A DNA stretch of 11,947 bases from a virus. Made by a program: the position numbers and the translations under genes. The stretch lies in the UHGV virus genome UHGV-1581813; one strand, written 5' to 3'. Below the pieces are notes generated by a model. That model saw nothing but the letters and a program-made list of their open reading frames with translations. It was not told the DNA's origin and made no database searches. Each line of letters starts with the position of its first letter. Position 1 is the first letter of the stretch. This document shows positions 3,436-11,783 of this stretch, piece after piece.

Positions 3436-4022
3436 GCGATCACCATTTTGCATGGTTTAATCGCCATGCCGGTAGCCAGTTCAAAATCGGAGTCGCACTG
3501 ATTGCCCCACATATCCCACCCGGTCACTTTGTCGCGGCTAAATAACTCACAGCGCGGCACGTCGCCAAGCAACTTAGCTAACATGTCTCTTACGATCGGT
3601 GGTTTTGCACTGTGCTCCATTCTCGGTGCGGTAAAGTGCTGGCATATGGAAGCGTCCATTCTCTCAGGCAACCGCCCTCGAACAGCAAACAAGCAATCCT
3701 CGCTATTTGCCCGGGTCATATGCCCCATTCCGATCGCACTGTTGCCTTTGTGCTTATTGGTTTTGTGCCAAGTAAAGCCTTTCATAGTCATCAACCTGAA
3801 TCCCCACGCCTCAATTACCTTTAGCGCTTCGGCTGGCTGTGTCGGCACCCACCACATCGCTAACAAGCAAGATTCTGGATCCGCTAAATCCCATACTGGC
3901 AGTCGGCAAATGTCCTGAACATTCATAACATCGTATTTATGTCCAGCACCGCGATTGCCATCGTTGGCTTTGTCGCGATATTGCCAAGGCGGATCTGCGT
4001 AAATAAGTCGGTATTTGTTCAT
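3432..4022 (-). CDS. DNA N6-adenine methyltransferase (MT-A70 family), orphan
   Basis: 196-aa ORF with an N-terminal DPPW catalytic motif ([18 protein letters not shown]...). An ATGA overlap joins it to ninB. No restriction endonuclease partner is evident nearby. Confidence 0.85.
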
Positions 4023-4462
4023 GCAGCTTTATCTCCCCATCTCGCTTTCCACTCCAGAGCCAGTCGCGCTTCGTCTGACCACTTAACGCCACGTTCTGTA
4101 CCGAATGCCTGTATAAGCTCTAATAGCTCCGCAAATTCGCTTACACGCATCCTGCTGGTTGACTGGCCTATTACCACAAAGCCATTCCCGGCAAGGTTAG
4201 GAACAACATCCTGCTGCTTTAAGGCTGCGGTAAACACACACTTCCAGCTTTCTGCATCCAGCCAGCGACCATGCCATTCAACCTGACGAGAGACGTCACC
4301 AAGGCAAGCCCAAAGCTTCCGATTCTGGTCTAAGCTGCGGTTGCGTTCCTGAATGGTTACTACGATTGGTTTGGTTGGGTCTGGAAGGATTTGCTGGATA
4401 GCTTGAATGGCGTTCCGCTGATGGATGGGGCTTCTTAGTTCAAACGTTAGTTTCCTCACCAT
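4019..4462 (-). CDS. ninB: NinB (Orf-family recombination mediator)
   Basis: 147-aa ORF MVRKLTFELRSPIHQRNAIQAIQQILPDPTKPIVVTIQERNRSLDQNRKLWACLGDV..., matching lambda NinB. Confidence 0.9.
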   Translation of the reverse strand: MVRKLTFELRSPIHQRNAIQAIQQILPDPTKPIVVTIQERNRSLDQNRKLWACLGDVSRQVEWHGRWLDAESWKCVFTAALKQQDVVPNLAGNGFVVIGQSTSRMRVSEFAELLELIQAFGTERGVKWSDEARLALEWKARWGDKAA

Positions 4463-4606: not shown

Positions 4607-4879
4607 TCACTCCTTCACTTTGACTCCAGCAGCGCGGATGTTTTCCTCATAAGCATCCATTCCATCACCGAAGCCATTGGAATAATCAACAGTAAACCCT
4701 TTGGCTAATGCTTCTCTGCTGTCGATAAACTTTGGCGCGGTTATTTCAATAGCTGCTCGCGATGCCTGCCACGCCTCCCATGCAATCTCGACCTTGATGT
4801 GCATAATCTTCATCACGTCACTTGAAACGTGATATTTGTTTTTAAACCACTCTTCAAACTGCTTTCTTGATTCGTCCAT
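4607..4879 (-). CDS. Hypothetical protein (90 aa)
   Basis: ORF MDESRKQFEEWFKNKYHVSSDVMKIMHIK..., co-oriented and tightly packed in the early-right operon. No motif recognised. Confidence 0.55.
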   Translation of the reverse strand: MDESRKQFEEWFKNKYHVSSDVMKIMHIKVEIAWEAWQASRAAIEITAPKFIDSREALAKGFTVDYSNGFGDGMDAYEENIRAAGVKVKE

Positions 4880-4890
4880 ATCAATCCCCG

Positions 4891-5091
4891 TTATGACAGG
4901 TTAATTTTCACCCAACCCTTCCCACGCACATTTGCAACAAGCCCTTTCTTTCTCAGGTATTGCATACGGCGATCGATGGTTTCGATATACATTCCATTGC
5001 TCCGCCATTTAAGCCAGATATCAAAAATAGGTGTTGGTCTTTCACTCAGCATTGAAAGAATGTTTTGATCTAATTTTTCGTACTTGCTCAC
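4891..5091 (-). CDS. Small putative winged-helix protein (66 aa), occupies a Ren-like position
   Basis: ORF MSKYEKLDQNILSMLSERPTPIFDIWLKWRSNGMYIETIDRRMQYLRKKGLVANVRGKGWVKINLS. An ATGA overlap joins it to the upstream membrane-protein gene. The winged-helix call is inferred from the sequence pattern only. Confidence 0.5.
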   Translation of the reverse strand: MSKYEKLDQNILSMLSERPTPIFDIWLKWRSNGMYIETIDRRMQYLRKKGLVANVRGKGWVKINLS

Positions 5092-5414
5092 AAATACCCT
5101 CTCTCACTTAATCGCCTCCACGCTTCGTTAAACTCTTCTCGGGTTGCGCCGGATTTTCTTTCTTCAAACATCATGCATTCGCTGATGTCTCCCCATGACT
5201 TTGGTCGCTTTTCAGCGAACAGATCATCCCATTCGAATACCCAGCGGCCTGATTTTCGGTAGTGGTAAATGGTCAGCCATGTTGTGCTGTTCGCTGGATA
5301 CCCATAGAGAACTTCGACTTTTTGATCACGGTCTTTATGCTTTTTCAGCAGGATAAAGCCAGCAACCAGCGAAGCTCCGGCAAGAATGATGATTGGAATT
5401 TGCCAGTCAGCCAC
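5088..5414 (-). CDS. Small membrane protein (one N-terminal transmembrane helix), hypothetical
   Basis: GTG start at 5414 preceded by a GGGGGAGAGGGAAG purine-rich ribosome-binding site. The N-terminus IPIIILAGASLVAGFILL is hydrophobic and followed by KKHKDRDQK (positive-inside). Confidence 0.5.
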   Translation of the reverse strand: MADWQIPIIILAGASLVAGFILLKKHKDRDQKVEVLYGYPANSTTWLTIYHYRKSGRWVFEWDDLFAEKRPKSWGDISECMMFEERKSGATREEFNEAWRRLSERGYL

Positions 5415-5428
5415 ACTTCCCTCTCCCC

Positions 5429-5461
5429 CAAATAAAAAGGCCTGCGATTACCAGCAGGCCT
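5429..5461 (-). terminator. Intrinsic terminator between replication genes and the nin-side cluster (tR2-like)
   Basis: Minus strand: AGGCCTGC-(8-nt loop)-GCAGGCCT, a perfect 8-bp stem, followed by TTTTTATTT, directly after the helicase stop. Confidence 0.6.
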
Positions 5462-5490: not shown

Positions 5491-7371
5491 TTAATACTCC
5501 GTCACGTTTTCCTGTCGCCACGCCTCGTCATATTCCGATTTCGGCATATTGGCGATGTAGCTATATGGCGATCCTGATTCAAGTTGCAGGAACTGGTGCG
5601 ATTGCTCGTCAAGGAACAACGGGACACCACCCTCCCAACCTTCGCCGTTACGTTGTTTTTCAAGCATCAAAACAGATGCCGGAGATGCCAGTAGCTGTTC
5701 GTCCTTCTCTGACATCTTTTCACCACTCTGAACTCTCTGTAACGCTCTCTCGCGAGCCTTGTTACGCCAGATGATGAAAAGGTTGTCTGTCAGGTCTGTT
5801 ATCGCTCCAGAGCCTTTTACGTCCATTTTCCCGGTTGGTTTTTCTTCGCTGTCTCCTTTTCGCGAGTGAGTAACGAGAATGACGTGGGAGTTTGTTTTGT
5901 TTTTGAAGTCGCAAATCGAGTCAACAAACGCCTTCTGCCCGTTATAGTCATCGTCGCCTATGCCACATTTCATCAGGCTGTCGATGATGAATAACTGGAT
6001 ACCGTATCGGCGGCGAGCGTAGTCGAATATTTCGATCAGCCTGTCGGCTTTCGCCGTTCCGGTCAGGCCAAACACCCAAAGTCTTTCGTCATAAAATTTA
6101 AATGCAGAGTCAATTTCCAGCACTGGCGGCATCTTGCAGCACGTTGCCTGACGGGTAAGTCGCTTAAGGAGAATGCCTGGCTTCAGCTCAAGTGACGCGA
6201 TGCACGTCTTCACACCCTGACGCATTGCCTCAAGTGCCATATGCCCGACAACCTCCGTTTTTCCGTGACCGTTCACACCATTGACCAGCGTCAACTCTGC
6301 CTCACGGAACTGGAATTTATCTGCCAGAGATTCCCACGGTGGATTAAACAGATACTGCTGCTTGCCGTAGAAAGCGTTGATAGTGTCCTGGTAAAACTCT
6401 CGCGCACTGTAGAGTTCTTCAGGATCGAAGTAGGATGCCGTGCCGATGTACTGCCAGATTTCATCCTCGGTAACACCGTTCATCAGGCATTCGTTGATGT
6501 CTTTGTACGGCAGAGTAACAAGACGGCAACGATGTTCACCGAGTCGGCTTGCGATTTCCCTTGCGGCTTCACGACCAACATCATCAACGTCCATCGAGAT
6601 GAATATCTCCTCAAACCTGTCGAGGTTGTGATACTCAAACTCAATCCACTGTTGCTTAGCACCTTTCCCGCCACCAAACGGCACGGATAACGCCGAGATG
6701 CCGTATTGCGCATAGCTCATACAATCAATTTCGCCTTCGCAAAGCACAACCGCCCTCACGCCAGCGTCCAGAGCCTGCCATCCGAACAGACAAGGTTCGC
6801 AATCACCTTCTGCCATAATGACTTTCTTCCCGTCCGGGCGCTCAGTGCTGATTCGCTTGACCTGCAACAACTCACCATCGCGTTTGTACGGAAGCACCAG
6901 AGCATCCAGTTCTCGTTCTCCATTCCACACCTTGCCGCTGACAACCTCGTAGCGCTTTACGACTTCTGGCGATATGCCACGCGATTGCAGGTACTCAAGA
7001 TGGGATTCTGTTCTGGTAACGTAGCGGGCGATTTTCTTGCGATCAGGTCTGGAGAATTTCTTCTCACGTTTGGCATCGAAATGGTGATCGTCATCCTTGA
7101 TACCGAGAAATGCTTTCGCTTCCTGCATAGCCTGATGCAGGTTAATTCCTCGACATGCCATCCACAAATCAAGCATGTCACCGCCGTCTCCCTCAGCGAA
7201 ATCAGCCCATTTTTTCTTGCCGCTAAGGTTGACCTTAAGGCTGTTTCCCTTGTCACCGTTGACGTTACCGGCAACCCACTCATGCCCCTCTTTCTTGCCG
7301 TTCGGCAACAGGTGCGGAGCCACCCTGTCAACCTGCGCCCAAAGCAGGTCGCTAAGTTCACTTGGCGTCAT
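5491..7371 (-). CDS. Replicative primase-helicase (Toprim-like domain plus DnaB/RepA-type P-loop helicase)
   Basis: 626-aa ORF with a Toprim-like VLCEGEIDCMS motif, Walker A GVNGHGKT and Walker B LFIIDSLM. It lies immediately downstream of the O-like initiator, in place of lambda P. Confidence 0.8.
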   Translation of the reverse strand: MTPSELSDLLWAQVDRVAPHLLPNGKKEGHEWVAGNVNGDKGNSLKVNLSGKKKWADFAEGDGGDMLDLWMACRGINLHQAMQEAKAFLGIKDDDHHFDAKREKKFSRPDRKKIARYVTRTESHLEYLQSRGISPEVVKRYEVVSGKVWNGERELDALVLPYKRDGELLQVKRISTERPDGKKVIMAEGDCEPCLFGWQALDAGVRAVVLCEGEIDCMSYAQYGISALSVPFGGGKGAKQQWIEFEYHNLDRFEEIFISMDVDDVGREAAREIASRLGEHRCRLVTLPYKDINECLMNGVTEDEIWQYIGTASYFDPEELYSAREFYQDTINAFYGKQQYLFNPPWESLADKFQFREAELTLVNGVNGHGKTEVVGHMALEAMRQGVKTCIASLELKPGILLKRLTRQATCCKMPPVLEIDSAFKFYDERLWVFGLTGTAKADRLIEIFDYARRRYGIQLFIIDSLMKCGIGDDDYNGQKAFVDSICDFKNKTNSHVILVTHSRKGDSEEKPTGKMDVKGSGAITDLTDNLFIIWRNKARERALQRVQSGEKMSEKDEQLLASPASVLMLEKQRNGEGWEGGVPLFLDEQSHQFLQLESGSPYSYIANMPKSEYDEAWRQENVTEY

Positions 7372-7478
7372 GATTCCCTCAGATTGAGATTTTTAAACCA
7401 GAAATCGACAAACGAAATACTTAACCAGCCGTGGTTATAACCAGCGACCAGTAGCGATTTGATTTTTGATTTCATGGT

Positions 7479-8339
7479 TCACCTGTCGAAAAACACGTAG
7501 CCAGTTTTCGATACGGTGATTGCGGATGATGGTTTAGATTGTGGTTGAATGGTTTCTGGCTTTTCGTCGTTCCAGCGCTGACCGTTCAGGTAGCTCGATG
7601 GTAACAACCTGTCGAATCCGAACTGCTTACCATTCCTGCATGCGATGTCTTCTGCCAGCATCGTGGCAAACTCGCTTGCCGTACCCTTGGTAGTTTTACG
7701 CCATTCCCTGAACTGTGTTCTGAATGCCGTAGCTGCGTTTTTCTTCCCGGCTTTCCGCATGCCTGCACACCAGAATATTTCCTCGAATGCCTTGTCGGTT
7801 TCTTCGTGACGGTCAGGTGATTTTTCACACTCCGTCCGAACACTTTCGGACATAGTGTTTTTATTATTTCTTTTTTCTTTTGTAATAGTTTCTTTTGTGT
7901 GTCCCTGTTTTGGTGACAGCGCTGTCACCGTTTTGGTGACACTTTTTGTCACCAATGCAGTGACATTATCACCAGAGTAGTGACACCCTTCGATTTTCCA
8001 TTCTTCGATGTTCTTGTTAGGCCCGATTTGCTGGCCTTCGCGAAGGATAACCTTCATCGCGATAAGCTCATTCTTGGCCTTGTTTACCTTCTGTCTTGGC
8101 AGCCTGGTAATTTGAGCTAACTGACTATCAGAGATGCGATCCATCTTTTTACCGTAGCCGTATGTTTTACGGCATATGGCGTGGGCAACCTTGCTCTGAT
8201 TTTTCGTTAAATCTGCGCCGATAAGCTCTTCATACAGGGCATTTGCAAGACGGGTATAACCATCTTCAACTTCTGCCACACGACGCTCCACAGGCCGTTG
8301 TGAAGGCCTTAAATGTGTTACGGTTGCAAGATTAATCAT
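7479..8339 (-). CDS. Replication initiator, lambda O-like N-terminal domain
   Basis: 286-aa ORF. Its N-terminal ~110 aa (…[14 protein letters not shown]…ADLTK…[25 protein letters not shown]…GPNKNIEEW) are clearly homologous to lambda O as I recall. The gene contains the iteron array, as O contains ori-lambda. Confidence 0.85.
7858..7990. repeat. Candidate origin of replication inside the O-like gene: four GTGACA-containing iterons plus an adjacent AT-rich tract
   Basis: GTGACA occurs at 7913, 7936, 7960 and 7980 (20-24 bp spacing), each within an inverted-repeat unit such as GGTGACAGCGCTGTCACC. An AT-rich block lies at 7858-7900. The order iterons-then-AT-rich in the direction of O transcription matches ori-lambda architecture. 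Confidence 0.6.
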
Positions 8340-8478
8340 GACCTTTCTCCTTCTGCATCAGCTTCACTTTTTCCAACTCAGCCCGGAATCGACCAGGCTG
8401 CTTGAAGCTGGACAGGAAGCGATCACGTAGTATGTGTTTGTGAATTTTGTCCTGGTAAGGACTGAGTTGTTTTGTCAT
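8332..8478 (-). CDS. Unannotated small basic protein (48 aa) between cII and the O-like gene
   Basis: Not in the ORF track. ACAGGAGTAATT precedes the ATG at 8478. Product is [48 protein letters not shown]. Its stop overlaps the O-like start. The start context resembles the lambda O start context as I recall. Confidence 0.45.
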
Positions 8479-8487
8479 AATTACTCC

Positions 8488-8566
8488 TGTGGATTGATCC
8501 AGTAATGACCTCAGAATTCCATCTGGATTTGTTCAGAACGCTCGGTTGCCGCCGGGCGTTTTTTAT
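8488..8566 (+). ncRNA. oop: OOP-like antisense RNA (pO promoter to the 'to' terminator), antisense to the cII 3' end
   Basis: Plus strand has an extended -10 TGTCATAAT at 8473-8481. Downstream is a hairpin GCTCGG-UUGCCG-CCGGGC (8540-8557) followed by GTTTTTTATT. The resulting ~78-nt transcript overlaps the last ~55 nt of cII on the opposite strand, as in lambda. Confidence 0.55.
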
Positions 8567-8804
8567 TGGTGAGAATCGAAGCAACTTGTCGTGCCAATCG
8601 AGCCATGTCGTCGTCAACGACACCCCATTCAAGAACAGCAAGCAGCATTGAGAACTTTGGAATCCAATCCCTCTTCCACCTGCTGATCTGCGACTTATCA
8701 ACTCCCACAGCTTCCGCTGTCTTCTCAGTTCCAAGCATTGCGATTTTGTTAAGCAACGCACTCTCGATTCTTAGAGCCTCGTTGCGTTTGTTTGCACGAA
8801 CCAT
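8511..8804 (-). CDS. cII: Transcriptional activator CII
   Basis: From the ATG at 8804 the product is [51 protein letters not shown]..., 97 aa, matching lambda CII. The classic TAAGGAAATACTTACAT-ATG start context is present. The track ORF (start 8891) is an upstream in-frame extension across nutR. Confidence 0.9.
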
Positions 8805-8862
8805 ATGTAAGTATTTCCTTAACAAATAAGAAGTTATGCGCATCAACTTATGCGCGTTGTAT

Positions 8863-8905
8863 TCCCGCATTTCGGCGGGAATGAGGACCATGACTGTTAA
8901 AGAGC
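8863..8905 (-). promoter_or_regulatory. nutR (boxA plus boxB hairpin)
   Basis: On the minus strand, just after the cro stop: boxA-like TGCTCTTTAACA, then 14 nt, then hairpin TCCCGC-CGAAAU-GCGGGA. The same boxA and an identical hairpin recur downstream of pL on the plus strand. Confidence 0.6.
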
Positions 8906-8912
8906 AATTTGC

Positions 8913-9098
8913 TTATGCCGCTTTGCGGTAAGCGCTTTCTTGATACTTCAGGGCGCCAGCTGTAACGACTTCCAGTCGATAGGCGTCTTTCTCTGGGATG
9001 ACTTCCTTCCACTGAGAGACTGCTGCGTCGCTAATGCCTAACGCTTTAGCTACAGCACGCTGGGTTCCGAAGTGGTCGATAACATCTTTCTTGTACAT
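8913..9098 (-). CDS. cro: Cro repressor (P22-type)
   Basis: 61-aa ORF MYKKDVIDHFGTQRAVAKALGISDAAVSQWKEVIPEKDAYRLEVVTAGALKYQ... with a helix-turn-helix, divergent from the repressor gene. It resembles P22 Cro as I recall. Confidence 0.85.
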   Translation of the reverse strand: MYKKDVIDHFGTQRAVAKALGISDAAVSQWKEVIPEKDAYRLEVVTAGALKYQESAYRKAA

Positions 9099-9112: not shown

Positions 9113-9178
9113 ATTAAAGAACACTTAAATTATCCACTAAAGGAATCTTAAGTCAAGTTTATTTAAGATGTCTTAACT
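9113..9178. promoter_or_regulatory. Right operator region (three 18-bp operators, OR1-OR3) with divergent pR and pRM
   Basis: Three imperfectly palindromic 18-mers: ATTAAAGAACACTTAAAT (9113-9130), ACTAAAGGAATCTTAAGT (9136-9153) and ATTTAAGATGTCTTAACT (9161-9178), with centres 23 and 25 bp apart. The last ends 1 nt before the repressor ATG, consistent with a leaderless pRM transcript. Confidence 0.65.
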
Positions 9179-9829
9179 ATGAAAACTCAATTGATGGGAG
9201 AGCGCATTCGCGCTCGGAGAAAAGAACTCAAGATCAGGCAGGCCGCACTTGGAAAGATGGTCGGCGTGTCTAATGTTGCCATATCTCAGTGGGAACGCTC
9301 TGAGACAGAGCCAAATGGAGAGAATCTTCTCGCCCTGGCTAATGCGTTGAAGTGTTCCCCTGACTATCTGATGAAAGGAGAGGAAAGTCTTTCAAACATT
9401 GCCTATCACAGTAGGCATGATCCAAGAGGGTCATACCCTCTGATTAGCTGGGTGAGCGCAGGATGCTGGATGGAAGCTGTAGAACCATATCATAAGCGTG
9501 CAATAGATAACTGGTACGATACAACCGTAGACTGTTCAGAAGATTCGTTTTGGTTGGACGTGAAGGGAGACTCAATGACGGCTCCGGCCGGTCTCAGTAT
9601 CCCTGAAGGAATGATAATACTCGTCGATCCTGAAGTAGAGCCGCGTAACGGGAAACTGGTAGTTGCAAAGCTCGAAGGAGAAAACGAGGCAACTTTCAAG
9701 AAGTTAGTTATTGATGCAGGCAGGAAGTTTCTAAAACCACTTAACCCACAATATCCGATGATCGAGATCAACGGGAACTGCAAAATCATCGGCGTAGTTG
9801 TCGATGCAAAACTAGCAAACCTTCCATAA
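9179..9829 (+). CDS. c2: Prophage repressor, P22 c2-type (HTH plus LexA-like S24 autopeptidase domain)
   Basis: 216-aa ORF MKTQLMGERIRARRKELKIRQAALGKMVGVSNVAISQWERSETEPNGENLLALANAL... with a C-terminal S24-type domain (…WLDVKGDSM…). It closely resembles the P22 C2 repressor as I recall. Confidence 0.9.
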   Translation: MKTQLMGERIRARRKELKIRQAALGKMVGVSNVAISQWERSETEPNGENLLALANALKCSPDYLMKGEESLSNIAYHSRHDPRGSYPLISWVSAGCWMEAVEPYHKRAIDNWYDTTVDCSEDSFWLDVKGDSMTAPAGLSIPEGMIILVDPEVEPRNGKLVVAKLEGENEATFKKLVIDAGRKFLKPLNPQYPMIEINGNCKIIGVVVDAKLANLP

Positions 9830-11546: not shown

Positions 11547-11618
11547 GCGCGGCGTTACCGCATACCAATTACGCTTCACTCGAGGCGTTTTTCGTTATGT
11601 ATAAATAAGGAGCACACC

Positions 11619-11783
11619 ATGCAATATGCCATTGCAGGGTGGCCTGTTGCTGGCTGCCCTTCCGAATCTTTACTTGAACGAATCACCCGTAAATTACGTG
11701 ACGGATGGAAACGCCTTATCGACATACTTAATCAGCCAGGAGTCCCAAAAAATGGATCAAACAATTATGGCTATCCAGACTAA
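11619..11783 (+). CDS. cIII: CIII (inhibitor of FtsH-mediated CII degradation)
   Basis: Not in the ORF track (54 aa). AGGAG lies 6 nt upstream of the ATG at 11619. Product is [54 protein letters not shown], matching lambda CIII as I recall. Confidence 0.75.
   Translation: MQYAIAGWPVAGCPSESLLERITRKLRDGWKRLIDILNQPGVPKNGSNNYGYPD

Follow-up and report, generated by a model that had tools for sequence, protein, structure and literature searches.

How might a lambda-like phage start its replication when the O-type initiator is followed not by P but by a primase–helicase? The question is raised by positions 5491–8339 of the window, an 11,947-nt stretch of the virus genome UHGV-1581813. These positions hold the replication module, of the ES18/mEp043 type, of a lambda-like prophage of E. 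coli, situated in the early right operon. It encodes an O-type origin-binding protein whose gene contains the origin, a protein of 35 residues and a primase–helicase resembling T7 gp4. The two large reading frames lie where the original prediction had placed them, both on the minus strand (7479–8339, 286 amino acids (aa); 5491–7371, 626 aa). They would be transcribed from a pR promoter (9129–9156, minus strand), and an intrinsic terminator (5438–5461, minus strand) composed of an 8-bp stem with six G–C pairs, then TTTTTATTT, stands just past the primase–helicase stop codon. Among the window ORFs that were tested, none resembles P, DnaC or DnaB; what follows the initiator gene is the 35-aa ORF and the primase–helicase gene, and the P homologue that would define an O–P module is absent. 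We consider an ES18/mEp043-type module working through a helicase of its own to be, as a whole, the best explanation of the locus and probably the correct one.

The initiator and the origin inside its gene

The 286-aa product is assigned to the O-type replication initiators by Pfam, TIGR01610 and PHROG ('replication initiation O-like'). Residues 20–114 match Pfam Phage_rep_O (PF04492; E 1.1e-37, 128.8 bits against a cut-off of 28.7), and TIGR01610 phage_O_Nterm is matched at E 1.7e-30 (105.3 bits, cut-off 45.5), both above the curated thresholds. The predicted N-terminal origin-binding domain (aa 1–118; 7986–8339, minus strand) is 53% identical to aa 1–115 of lambda O (E 1e-41), in agreement with the lambda O-like N terminus originally proposed.

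A pattern search located four 19-bp palindromic iterons of the form TGTCACC-N5-GGTGACA inside the initiator gene, at 7900–7918, 7923–7941, 7947–7965 and 7967–7985. Read in the direction of O transcription they are spaced by 20, 24 and 23 bp, exactly as are the lambda iterons at 39034, 39054, 39078 and 39101. The bare GTGACA hexamer is not significant across the window (9 observed versus 5.3 expected), and the test was therefore run on the 19-bp dyad pattern. With up to two mismatches allowed, TGTCACN7GTGACA has six matches in the window against 0.42 expected, a count that none of 200 shuffles reached, and four of the six are packed into 86 bp. What carries the iteron signal is the 19-bp palindrome, together with its clustering, and not the hexamer. 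The claim that inverted GTGACA repeats unlike those of lambda lie within the initiator gene thus holds, in the form of four 19-bp units at 7900–7985. The near-matches at 4816 and 7251 were considered as auxiliary sites and rejected as chance occurrences, as each is isolated and has two mismatches.

Adjoining the iterons is an AT-rich tract (7855–7899; GC content 17.5% at 7860–7899) that is A-rich on the O-coding strand and constitutes a putative unwinding region. In sequence (CACAAAAGAAACTATTACAAAAGAAAAAAGAAA) it is almost the same as its counterpart in the lambda origin, and the order found here, clustered dyad iterons in the initiator's own gene and then an AT-rich tract, is that of an O-type origin. 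The iterons also encode initiator residues 119–147, in which every V–T dipeptide corresponds to an in-frame GTCAC(T/C) or GTGACA half-site; the protein repeat is thus written by the iterons themselves, as was first noticed.

Alternatively, the GTGACA repeats might have no origin function and could instead reflect repetition at the coding level, or a regulatory site of another kind; in a consensus scan of the window they are also picked up as weak, terminator-like hairpins. We consider this very improbable, given that the position in the gene, the copy number of four, the 19-bp dyad and the 20/24/23 spacing match the experimentally defined lambda iterons, that the same AT-rich tract adjoins them, and that a model, albeit of low confidence, places the encoded peptide in a disordered linker. 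Moreover, iteron sequence and N-domain vary together from homologue to homologue. The Proteus homologue has the same geometry and the same iteron sequence (TGTCACCAAAACAGTGACA), whereas the Xenorhabdus homologue has the same geometry with different half-sites (TTTACCGAATCAGTAAA). The window and the Proteus homologue, with their common iterons, also have one and the same recognition segment in the N-domain; lambda and Xenorhabdus, whose iterons are different, differ in this segment as well. This covariation across the four systems lends indirect support to the putative binding of the iterons by the initiator N-domain.

The C-terminal domain (about aa 163–286; 7479–7854, minus strand; phrog_33384, E 3e-88), which may recruit the partner protein, has no similarity to the C-domain of lambda O (BLASTP E 0.27; hhalign probability 0.13%), consistent with the earlier statement that this half of the protein is unlike lambda's. 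A lambda-like C-domain that has diverged beyond the reach of BLAST was rejected as an explanation, as the profile comparison does not support it. Pfam returned nothing for the C-domain even at E 10, and a PDB sequence search with the initiator gave no meaningful match. The AlphaFold model of the initiator, built from a shallow alignment of 11 sequences, has a pLDDT of 45.9 and is too poor for judging the fold of the C-domain or of the tail.

The protein ends in a 19-residue tail with the motif ITVS-K/E-x-G-x-VF (7482–7538, minus strand). It is near-identical in five of the enterobacterial initiators compared, with one Lys replaced by Arg in SI8, and S107 and SI8 have the same tail although the rest of their C-domain differs. 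The motif is kept in Proteus and Xenorhabdus and is absent from lambda O and PhiR12 O. The sharing with S107 and SI8 is in part a matter of near-identical DNA (97–100% over about 135 bp), which could reflect a recombination junction instead of a functional contact.

The primase–helicase and the gene before it

The 626-aa protein is a bifunctional primase–helicase of the gp4/Twinkle type, as indicated by Pfam, phrog_239 (E 2e-171), PDB and AlphaFold. A PDB sequence search retrieved T7 gp4 (2.7e-23) and Twinkle (6.5e-14), and with the AlphaFold model (pLDDT 86.2) Foldseek retrieved T7 gp4 (5ikn_J, target TM 0.75, rmsd 4.2 over 501 columns; 1q57_A, 0.72) and Twinkle (E 5e-27), the overall fold of the model being that of the solved gp4 and Twinkle structures. 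The Toprim primase catalytic domain (aa 209–296; 6484–6747, minus strand; Toprim_2, E 3e-12) contains E212, E214, D216, D261, D263, D291 and N293, which are invariant among 63 homologues of 42–95% identity; the Toprim residues, including the acidic ones, align with the EGEID, DMD and KDANE motifs of T7 gp4. The SF4 (DnaB/gp4-like) helicase domain (aa 355–594; 5590–6309, minus strand; AAA_25, DnaB_C) matches gp4 helicase and DnaB structures in Foldseek. Its residues invariant in the 63 homologues are G365, G370 and K371 of Walker A, D464 of Walker B, Q479, H502, K505 and R536, so that the SF4 core of Walker A, Walker B, sensor His and Arg finger (K371, D464, H502 and R536) is complete. Pfam, PDB and fold searches, domain searches of the kind suggested at the outset, recover both primase and helicase domains, and the proposed fusion of Toprim and P-loop helicase at the position of lambda P is borne out.

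As in T7 gp4 and mitochondrial Twinkle, a single chain combines a zinc-binding-domain (ZBD)-like region, an RNA-polymerase/Toprim region, a linker and an SF4 helicase, with aligned catalytic motifs and a matching fold, although identity to either is only about 20–22%. In the mechanism proposed below an O-type initiator would bring the protein to an iteron origin, unlike in T7, whose origins are primed by the phage's own RNA polymerase and whose replisome includes a phage DNA polymerase.

The N-terminal region departs from the gp4 pattern at its zinc site. About aa 24–90 (7102–7302, minus strand) form a zinc-less domain resembling the zinc-binding domain of DnaG; it is recognized by TIGR01391 dnaG (aa 26–143, E 9e-10), modelled with a pLDDT of about 90 and matched by Foldseek to 2au3 (2.4e-12). 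A Cys4 or CHC2 site is absent: the fold is ZBD-like, but the ligand positions are Asp/Glu or unconserved. The loss of all four zinc ligands of the DnaG/gp4 ZBD had gone unnoticed in the original prediction.

The degenerate zinc site bears on whether the protein is a helicase only, with a Toprim domain that is weak or dead through ZBD degeneration, as in metazoan Twinkle, and a continuing need for host DnaG. In favour of this reading, D57 and E60 occupy the Cys positions of the Aquifex DnaG CFGC motif in a weak alignment, no Cys or His in aa 1–100 is conserved across the family, and neither zf-CHC2, Prim_Zn_Ribbon nor any other Pfam entry matches the N-terminal 200 aa, even at E 10. The zinc ligands have likewise been lost in metazoan Twinkle; the Toprim acidic residues are kept in the 626-aa protein, unlike in metazoan Twinkle. 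A phage precedent for dependence on host primase is the P22 gp12 helicase, which works with host DnaG in the account of Wickner 1984 relayed by PMC8022706. A helicase-only protein nevertheless seems unlikely to us, as the six acidic Toprim residues are invariant down to 42% identity at positions aligned to the catalytic motifs of T7 gp4, and the zinc-less domain is strongly conserved (G35, G42, S44, D57, G64 and D65 are invariant) and confidently folded, which argues for a retained function. Primase activity of the bifunctional protein is therefore likely but, because its zinc-binding domain has lost the ligands, not assured. The zinc-binding domain of T7 gp4 is needed for template-directed priming, and its degeneration here makes independence from DnaG less secure than independence from DnaB.

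Between the initiator and primase–helicase genes lies a conserved 35-aa gene (MKSKIKSLLVAGYNHGWLSISFVDFWFKNLNLRES; 7368–7475, minus strand; phrog_21848, E 4e-26). It begins 3 nt past the O stop codon and ends in a stop that overlaps the ATG of the primase–helicase gene (ATGA). The encoded protein is that of ES18 gp60 and epsilon34 gp51, is conserved despite diverged DNA in Proteus, Xenorhabdus and SaltyDalty, and occurs in 39 phage records, directly upstream of the primase–helicase in each record inspected. The gene is often left unannotated, and the original prediction had also passed over it. One possible, though rather doubtful, reading assigns the module three essential components: the 35-aa protein would be an obligatory adaptor or loader and the initiator tail (ITVSKxGxVF) a portable docking peptide for O-type or HTH_36-type origin-binding proteins, the whole forming a minimal replicon free of DnaB, DnaC and DnaG. 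If so, origin specificity would be plug-and-play.

Natural domain exchanges and a proposed mechanism

Related phages combine these parts in other ways. PhiR12_1 to 5 have the same N-domain and iterons (99.4% nucleotide identity) but the lambda C-domain, P and Ren. Reciprocally, ES18 and epsilon34 join the lambda N-domain and lambda iterons to the window's type of C-domain, 35-aa gene and primase–helicase (see also PMC2629481). The Stx2 phages F451, Min27 and 24B and the Salmonella phages S107 and SI8 have HTH_36 initiators with other repeats and the same C-domain or C-terminal tail, and all of them retain the 35-aa gene and the primase–helicase. The C-domain hence occurs behind lambda-type, GTGACA-type and HTH_36-type N-domains, with the primase–helicase next to it each time; the linkage between N-domain type, C-domain type and partner was seen in about a dozen loci. 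The C-domain homologue search yielded mostly partial or frameshifted fragments and was used only for the co-occurrence of PF04492 and PF13730 N-domains with the C-domain. In PhiR12 and the Stx2 phages the AT-rich tract is the point of crossover.

These reciprocal swaps, read from sequence, support the following putative mechanism. Transcription from pR would yield the initiator, the 35-aa protein and the primase–helicase as a translationally coupled set. Dimers of the initiator would bind the four iterons inside its gene through the lambda O-type N-domain and form an O-some-like complex that destabilizes the adjoining AT-rich tract. The distinct C-domain, possibly together with the conserved tail, would then recruit the phage's gp4-like hexameric primase–helicase to the opened DNA, a step in which the 35-aa protein may take part and whose lambda equivalent is the P–DnaB complex. 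The primase–helicase would load itself, unwind the DNA and prime it for synthesis by host Pol III; host DnaB and DnaC would then not be needed, and probably not DnaG either. That the phage supplies its own helicase and replicates independently of DnaB, as originally suggested, is a reasonable inference from the genes present: it fits the lack of a P- or DnaC-like gene, the homology to the self-loading T7 gp4 and the co-inheritance of C-domain and primase–helicase.

Alternatively, the initiator could still recruit host DnaB without P, leaving the primase–helicase to a late rolling-circle stage or to priming only. Some O-type initiators manage without a phage partner, as 34 of 314 surveyed lambdoids encode an O homologue only, without helicase or loader (PMC12315714). 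We judge continued use of DnaB improbable in the present module: the helicase motifs are invariant, and the primase–helicase gene sits exactly at the position of P or gene 12, is linked to the initiator gene by translational coupling via the 35-aa gene, and goes with a particular C-domain or tail of the initiator in at least four N-domain types.

The module illustrates how lambdoids keep origin recognition apart from helicase recruitment: the N-domain with its iterons forms one exchangeable unit and the C-domain with its partner a second, joined at the conserved AT-rich crossover point. A replicon independent of DnaB and DnaC, if this is what the module provides, could serve as a tool, and it may evade blocks that the host or its defences impose on P–DnaB loading.

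Relatives and distribution of the module

The original prediction described the module as a hybrid, implying something unusual, a view that its relatives do not sustain: the module is real but ordinary, a recognized type widespread among lambdoids (ES18, epsilon34, mEp043, Sf101 and Stx2 phages), with near-identical annotated copies already available in mEp043 and Sf101. Nucleotide identity across the module is 98.3–98.6% to mEp043, Sf101 and vB_EcoP-720R6, with 98.6% for mEp043 and Sf101, and 91.7% to SEN22. These four have the same genes, gene order, O N-domain and GTGACA iterons as the window. From the mEp043/Sf101 group it does not differ in essence, the flanking immunity and nin genes varying by ordinary lambdoid mosaicism, and the 626-aa protein is 100% identical to that of mEp043 (94.2% to ES18 gp61). 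All three proteins are of the ES18 sequence type (phrog_33384, phrog_21848 and phrog_239), and the tightly coupled order of initiator, 35-aa gene and primase–helicase in the pR operon is that of ES18; the order is identical in ES18, epsilon34, mEp043, S107, SI8, F451, Proteus, Xenorhabdus and SaltyDalty. Published genome papers describe the type, an O homologue plus a primase–helicase, for ES18, epsilon34 and the Anderson typing phages (PMC2629481, PMC10307801). The papers on mEp043, Sf101 and lambdoid co-transfer contain little or nothing on its replication mechanism, and we found no binding, replication or host-dependence assays on this module type in the open-access literature. The module is nothing new in kind, and is of use chiefly for correct annotation and for the clean chimera experiments that it allows one to define.

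ES18 (gp59–gp60–gp61) and epsilon34 (gp50–gp51–gp52) share the C-domain, the 35-aa gene, the primase–helicase (94% aa identity) and the location of the origin in the initiator gene, but resemble lambda in their N-domain (94% identity to lambda O) and in their lambda-type iterons (ATCCCTCAAAA-GAGGGA), where the window has 53% identity and TGTCACC-N5-GGTGACA. The lambda O–P module agrees with the window in its homologous N-domain, in the 20/24/23 spacing of its four 19-bp dyad iterons, in its nearly identical AT-rich tract and in its place in the pR operon downstream of cII; its O C-domain is unrelated, and its partner P is a loader that captures host DnaB, whereas the partner here is the phage primase–helicase with the 35-aa protein. 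P22 genes 18 and 12 likewise pair an O-related initiator and internal origin with a phage replicative helicase that replaces P and DnaB (PMC8022706), but gp12 belongs to the DnaB family of helicases, lacks a primase domain and partners host DnaG.

The Stx2 phages F451, Min27 and 24B, which probably correspond to 'Eru5' of PMC8951638, share the C-domain, 35-aa gene and primase–helicase (about 98% aa identity outside the intein), and differ in an HTH_36 N-domain with GGGCAGCTCCTGCCCC repeats and in a 342-aa intein in the Walker A motif of the primase–helicase. The module is also present in Stx2-converting phages, in which toxin output has been linked to replication efficiency (PMC8044961). Among 5426 complete E. 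coli genomes, 2017 match part of a 3.2-kb query, and 172 contain nearly all of it.

An O-like initiator and a gp4/Twinkle-type primase-helicase

The window corresponds to the early region of a lambdoid prophage, whose replication genes are encoded on the minus strand. Opposite a P22-type cro (8913–9098) stands the gene for a cI-like repressor with HTH_3 and Peptidase_S24 domains (9179–9829, plus strand), and a pR-like promoter is located at 9129–9156. After cII and a 48-amino-acid DUF2740 gene comes the O-like initiator gene (7479–8339, minus strand), and downstream of it the gene for a 626-amino-acid protein (5491–7371, minus strand), which is followed by an intrinsic terminator (5438–5461). 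The lambda-type cII lies in a mechanical open reading frame (ORF) of 126 amino acids (8511–8891, minus strand), but the Pfam CII match is limited to residues 30–120, and the true start is therefore probably an internal, lambda-like Met about 97 amino acids before the stop. The DUF2740 gene (8332–8478, minus strand) shares 8 nt with the start of the initiator gene; judging from its position, the name 'tail protein' that it bears in PHROGs and RefSeq seems to be a misnomer. Proteus and Xenorhabdus loci have ORFs of 58 and 55 amino acids at this position, overlapping the start of the O-like gene that they precede, and the DUF2740 gene may belong to the replication module.

Consistent with the original prediction of a lambda O-like N-terminal domain, the initiator matches Phage_rep_O over residues 20–114 (Pfam, E = 1.1e-37) as well as TIGR01610, and over residues 1–118 it shares 53% identity with lambda O (E = 1e-41). 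The C-terminal half differs, as also proposed: no likeness to the lambda O C-domain was detected in the last 130 residues (BLASTP E = 0.27; profile comparison probability 0.13%).

The 626-amino-acid protein is a gp4/Twinkle-type primase-helicase. Pfam places Toprim_2 at residues 209–296 and both AAA_25 and DnaB_C over residues 355–594, and PHROGs labels the protein 'DNA primase/helicase' (E = 2e-171). A sequence search of the PDB returned T7 gp4 (2.7e-23, residues 192–539) and Twinkle (6.5e-14). The AlphaFold model (mean pLDDT 86.2, 63-sequence alignment) has Twinkle and T7 gp4 as its top structural matches (target TM 0.75 for 5ikn_J and 0.72 for 1q57_A), with DnaB helicases and Aquifex DnaG ranking next. 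Moreover, the Toprim acidic residues (E212, E214, D216, D261, D263 and D291) and the helicase motif residues (K371, D464, Q479, H502, K505 and R536) are invariant among homologues 42–95% identical. Taken together, these results bear out the predicted Toprim and P-loop helicase fusion; because both folds are present, a missing primase or helicase fold cannot be held against it. The protein differs from gp4 in having lost the zinc ligands of its N-terminal domain. This DnaG-ZBD-like domain (about residues 24–90; pLDDT about 90; TIGR01391 over residues 26–143, E = 9e-10) has D57 and E60 at the CxxC cysteine positions in a weak alignment to Aquifex DnaG, and family-wide no Cys or His is conserved within residues 1–100. 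The invariant Toprim residues make primase activity likely, although not assured. The family comprises 853 clusters at 50% identity (E ≤ 1e-30). The 59%-identical homologue in Elizabethkingia phage EKP1 (OM284015.1), which is assigned a Flavobacteriia host, is unexpectedly close for the taxonomic distance; horizontal transfer or an incorrectly assigned host may explain it.

A lambda-type origin with a different half-site

Four 19-bp dyad-symmetric iterons lie inside the initiator gene (7900–7918, 7923–7941, 7947–7965 and 7967–7985), followed by a tract of 17.5% GC. With up to two mismatches allowed, 6 instances of the dyad pattern were counted over the window where 0.42 would be expected, a number that none of 200 shuffles reached. 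This result upholds the proposed internal origin of GTGACA inverted repeats; the bare GTGACA hexamer count over the whole window, taken alone, was not significant. The protein repeat is indeed encoded by the iterons themselves: in the O frame they specify a 29-residue stretch in which every Val-Thr corresponds to a half-site, GTCACn or GTGACA.

Counted along O transcription, successive iteron starts are separated by 20, 24 and 23 bp, exactly the spacing of the four annotated lambda iterons (39034, 39054, 39078 and 39101). The AT-rich tracts are nearly identical (CACAAAAGAAACTATTACAAAAGAAAAAAGAAA in the window and CACAAAAGACACTATTACAAAAGAAAAAAGAAA in lambda), and the central CAAAAC of lambda is kept in two of the four window iterons. 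The window origin is thus of the lambda type, with another half-site. A prophage of Proteus mirabilis (TGTCACCAAAAC(A/G)GTGACA, four copies) and one of Xenorhabdus (TTTACCGAATCAGTAAA, four copies) have the same 20/24/23 spacing. A putative 21-residue recognition segment of the N-domain is the same in the window and Proteus, which have common iterons, whereas lambda and Xenorhabdus, with other iterons, have a different segment; such covariation suggests, indirectly, that the repeats are read by the N-domain. No description of a TGTCACC-N5-GGTGACA iteron was found in the searchable literature, and it is simply one more specificity in a well-known series.

Natural domain swaps and a proposed mechanism

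Most likely, the initiator would assemble on the four iterons as an O-some and open the AT-rich tract. The initiator C-domain or tail would then recruit the phage's own hexameric primase-helicase, possibly helped by a 35-amino-acid protein; the primase-helicase would unwind and prime, with synthesis by host Pol III. In lambda, the O C-domain contacts P, and the ES18-type module would apply the same paradigm to a different partner.

Natural domain swaps support this mechanism. PhiR12_1 to 5 share the window N-domain and iterons (99.4% nucleotide identity, 7867–8339), but from a point within the AT-rich tract onward they have the lambda O C-domain, and after it lambda P and Ren. Reciprocally, in ES18 and epsilon34 an N-domain of lambda type (94% to lambda O residues 17–148; PMC2629481) and lambda iterons are combined with the window-type C-domain, 35-amino-acid gene and primase-helicase. 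The Stx2 phages F451, Min27 and 24B join an unrelated HTH_36 N-domain and GGGCAGCTCCTGCCCC repeats to the window-type C-domain and primase-helicase. These swaps indicate that N-domain and iterons move together, as do the C-domain or tail and the partner. The HTH_36 initiators of Salmonella phages S107 and SI8 have different C-domains and still end in a near-identical 19-residue tail; the 35-amino-acid gene and the primase-helicase come next. This tail sits in a stretch 97–100% identical at the DNA level and could mark a recombination junction instead of a functional contact; the tail motif ITVS(K/E)xGxVF is kept in Proteus and Xenorhabdus.

The original prediction missed the 35-codon ORF (7368–7475), which begins 3 nt past the O stop codon and whose own stop overlaps the primase-helicase ATG. 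Its product matches phrog_21848 (E = 4e-26), with ES18 gp60 and epsilon34 gp51 as counterparts, and is conserved despite diverged DNA in Proteus, Xenorhabdus and phage SaltyDalty, the helicase of which is only 60% identical. The gene occurs in 39 phage records, about the number with a close primase-helicase homologue (73% identity or more); many leave it unannotated, and in every record inspected its place is immediately before the primase-helicase gene. It is absent from Pseudomonas and Vibrio relatives, in which the initiator overlaps the helicase start.

Since none of the window ORFs screened proved to be P-, DnaC- or DnaB-like, the natural inference is that replication would be independent of DnaB and DnaC; a lambdoid phage that supplies its own helicase has a precedent in P22 gene 12 (PMC8022706). 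Given the zinc-less domain, the case for independence from DnaG is weaker still.

Occurrence and variant loci

The module is 98.3–98.6% identical in mEp043, Sf101 and vB_EcoP-720R6 and 91.7% in SEN22, where its genes are annotated 'DNA replication protein O' and 'DNA primase/helicase'; at the protein level, the primase-helicase does not differ from that of mEp043 (100% identity). Among 5426 complete E. coli genomes, 2017 match part of the module and 172 carry nearly all of it, and the pairing of O-like initiator and primase-helicase reaches Pseudomonas phages. Surveys of Stx phages list HTH_36 and primase modules as an 'Eru' type (PMC8951638). The feature is real and was correctly interpreted, and it is ordinary and already annotated, of a type recognised in the literature and not novel in kind. 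What remains of interest is the 35-amino-acid protein, the conserved tail of the initiator and the question of whether a gp4-type primase lacking zinc is functional.

Elsewhere in the window, a strong intrinsic terminator (8535–8562, plus strand; 12-bp stem and T-run) is antisense to the 3′ part of cII, and we take its position and sequence to resemble those of the lambda oop RNA terminator. A cIII thermoregulator (Rfam Lambda_thermo, 11606–11664, plus strand, 88.5 bits) covers the start of a lambda-like cIII ORF (11619–11783). Three small genes of 108, 66 and 90 amino acids (4607–5414, minus strand; phrog_5903, phrog_7185 and phrog_343) separate the primase-helicase terminator from NinB (4019–4462), beyond which lie further nin-region genes; the 108-amino-acid product has a hydrophobic N-terminus, and the trio is unlike the genes at the equivalent position in mEp043, ES18 and F451.

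In the Stx2-converting phages F451 (L005:1840–4746) and Min27 (L001:1840–4748), a 342-amino-acid intein with Hom_end_hint and LAGLIDADG_3 domains interrupts the primase-helicase Walker A (GVNGHGK|ACPL...VATHN|TEVVGH; first residue Ala, +1 residue Thr). In the Min27 record, a frameshift divides the primase-helicase gene into 'P' and 'DNA primase', and O is frameshifted too. One genome, E. coli elppa4 (NZ_CP083512.1, 4104581–4108274), has a NUMOD4-motif HNH endonuclease gene within the module; together with the intein, this insertion suggests that the module is often targeted by homing elements. On E. coli contig JACYIN020000002.1 (L011:1845–2963), where the 35-amino-acid gene is absent, a 372-amino-acid protein matching phrog_704 ('DNA repair exonuclease') takes the place of the O-like initiator before a 73%-identical primase-helicase, and may be an alternative initiator type for the same helicase family.
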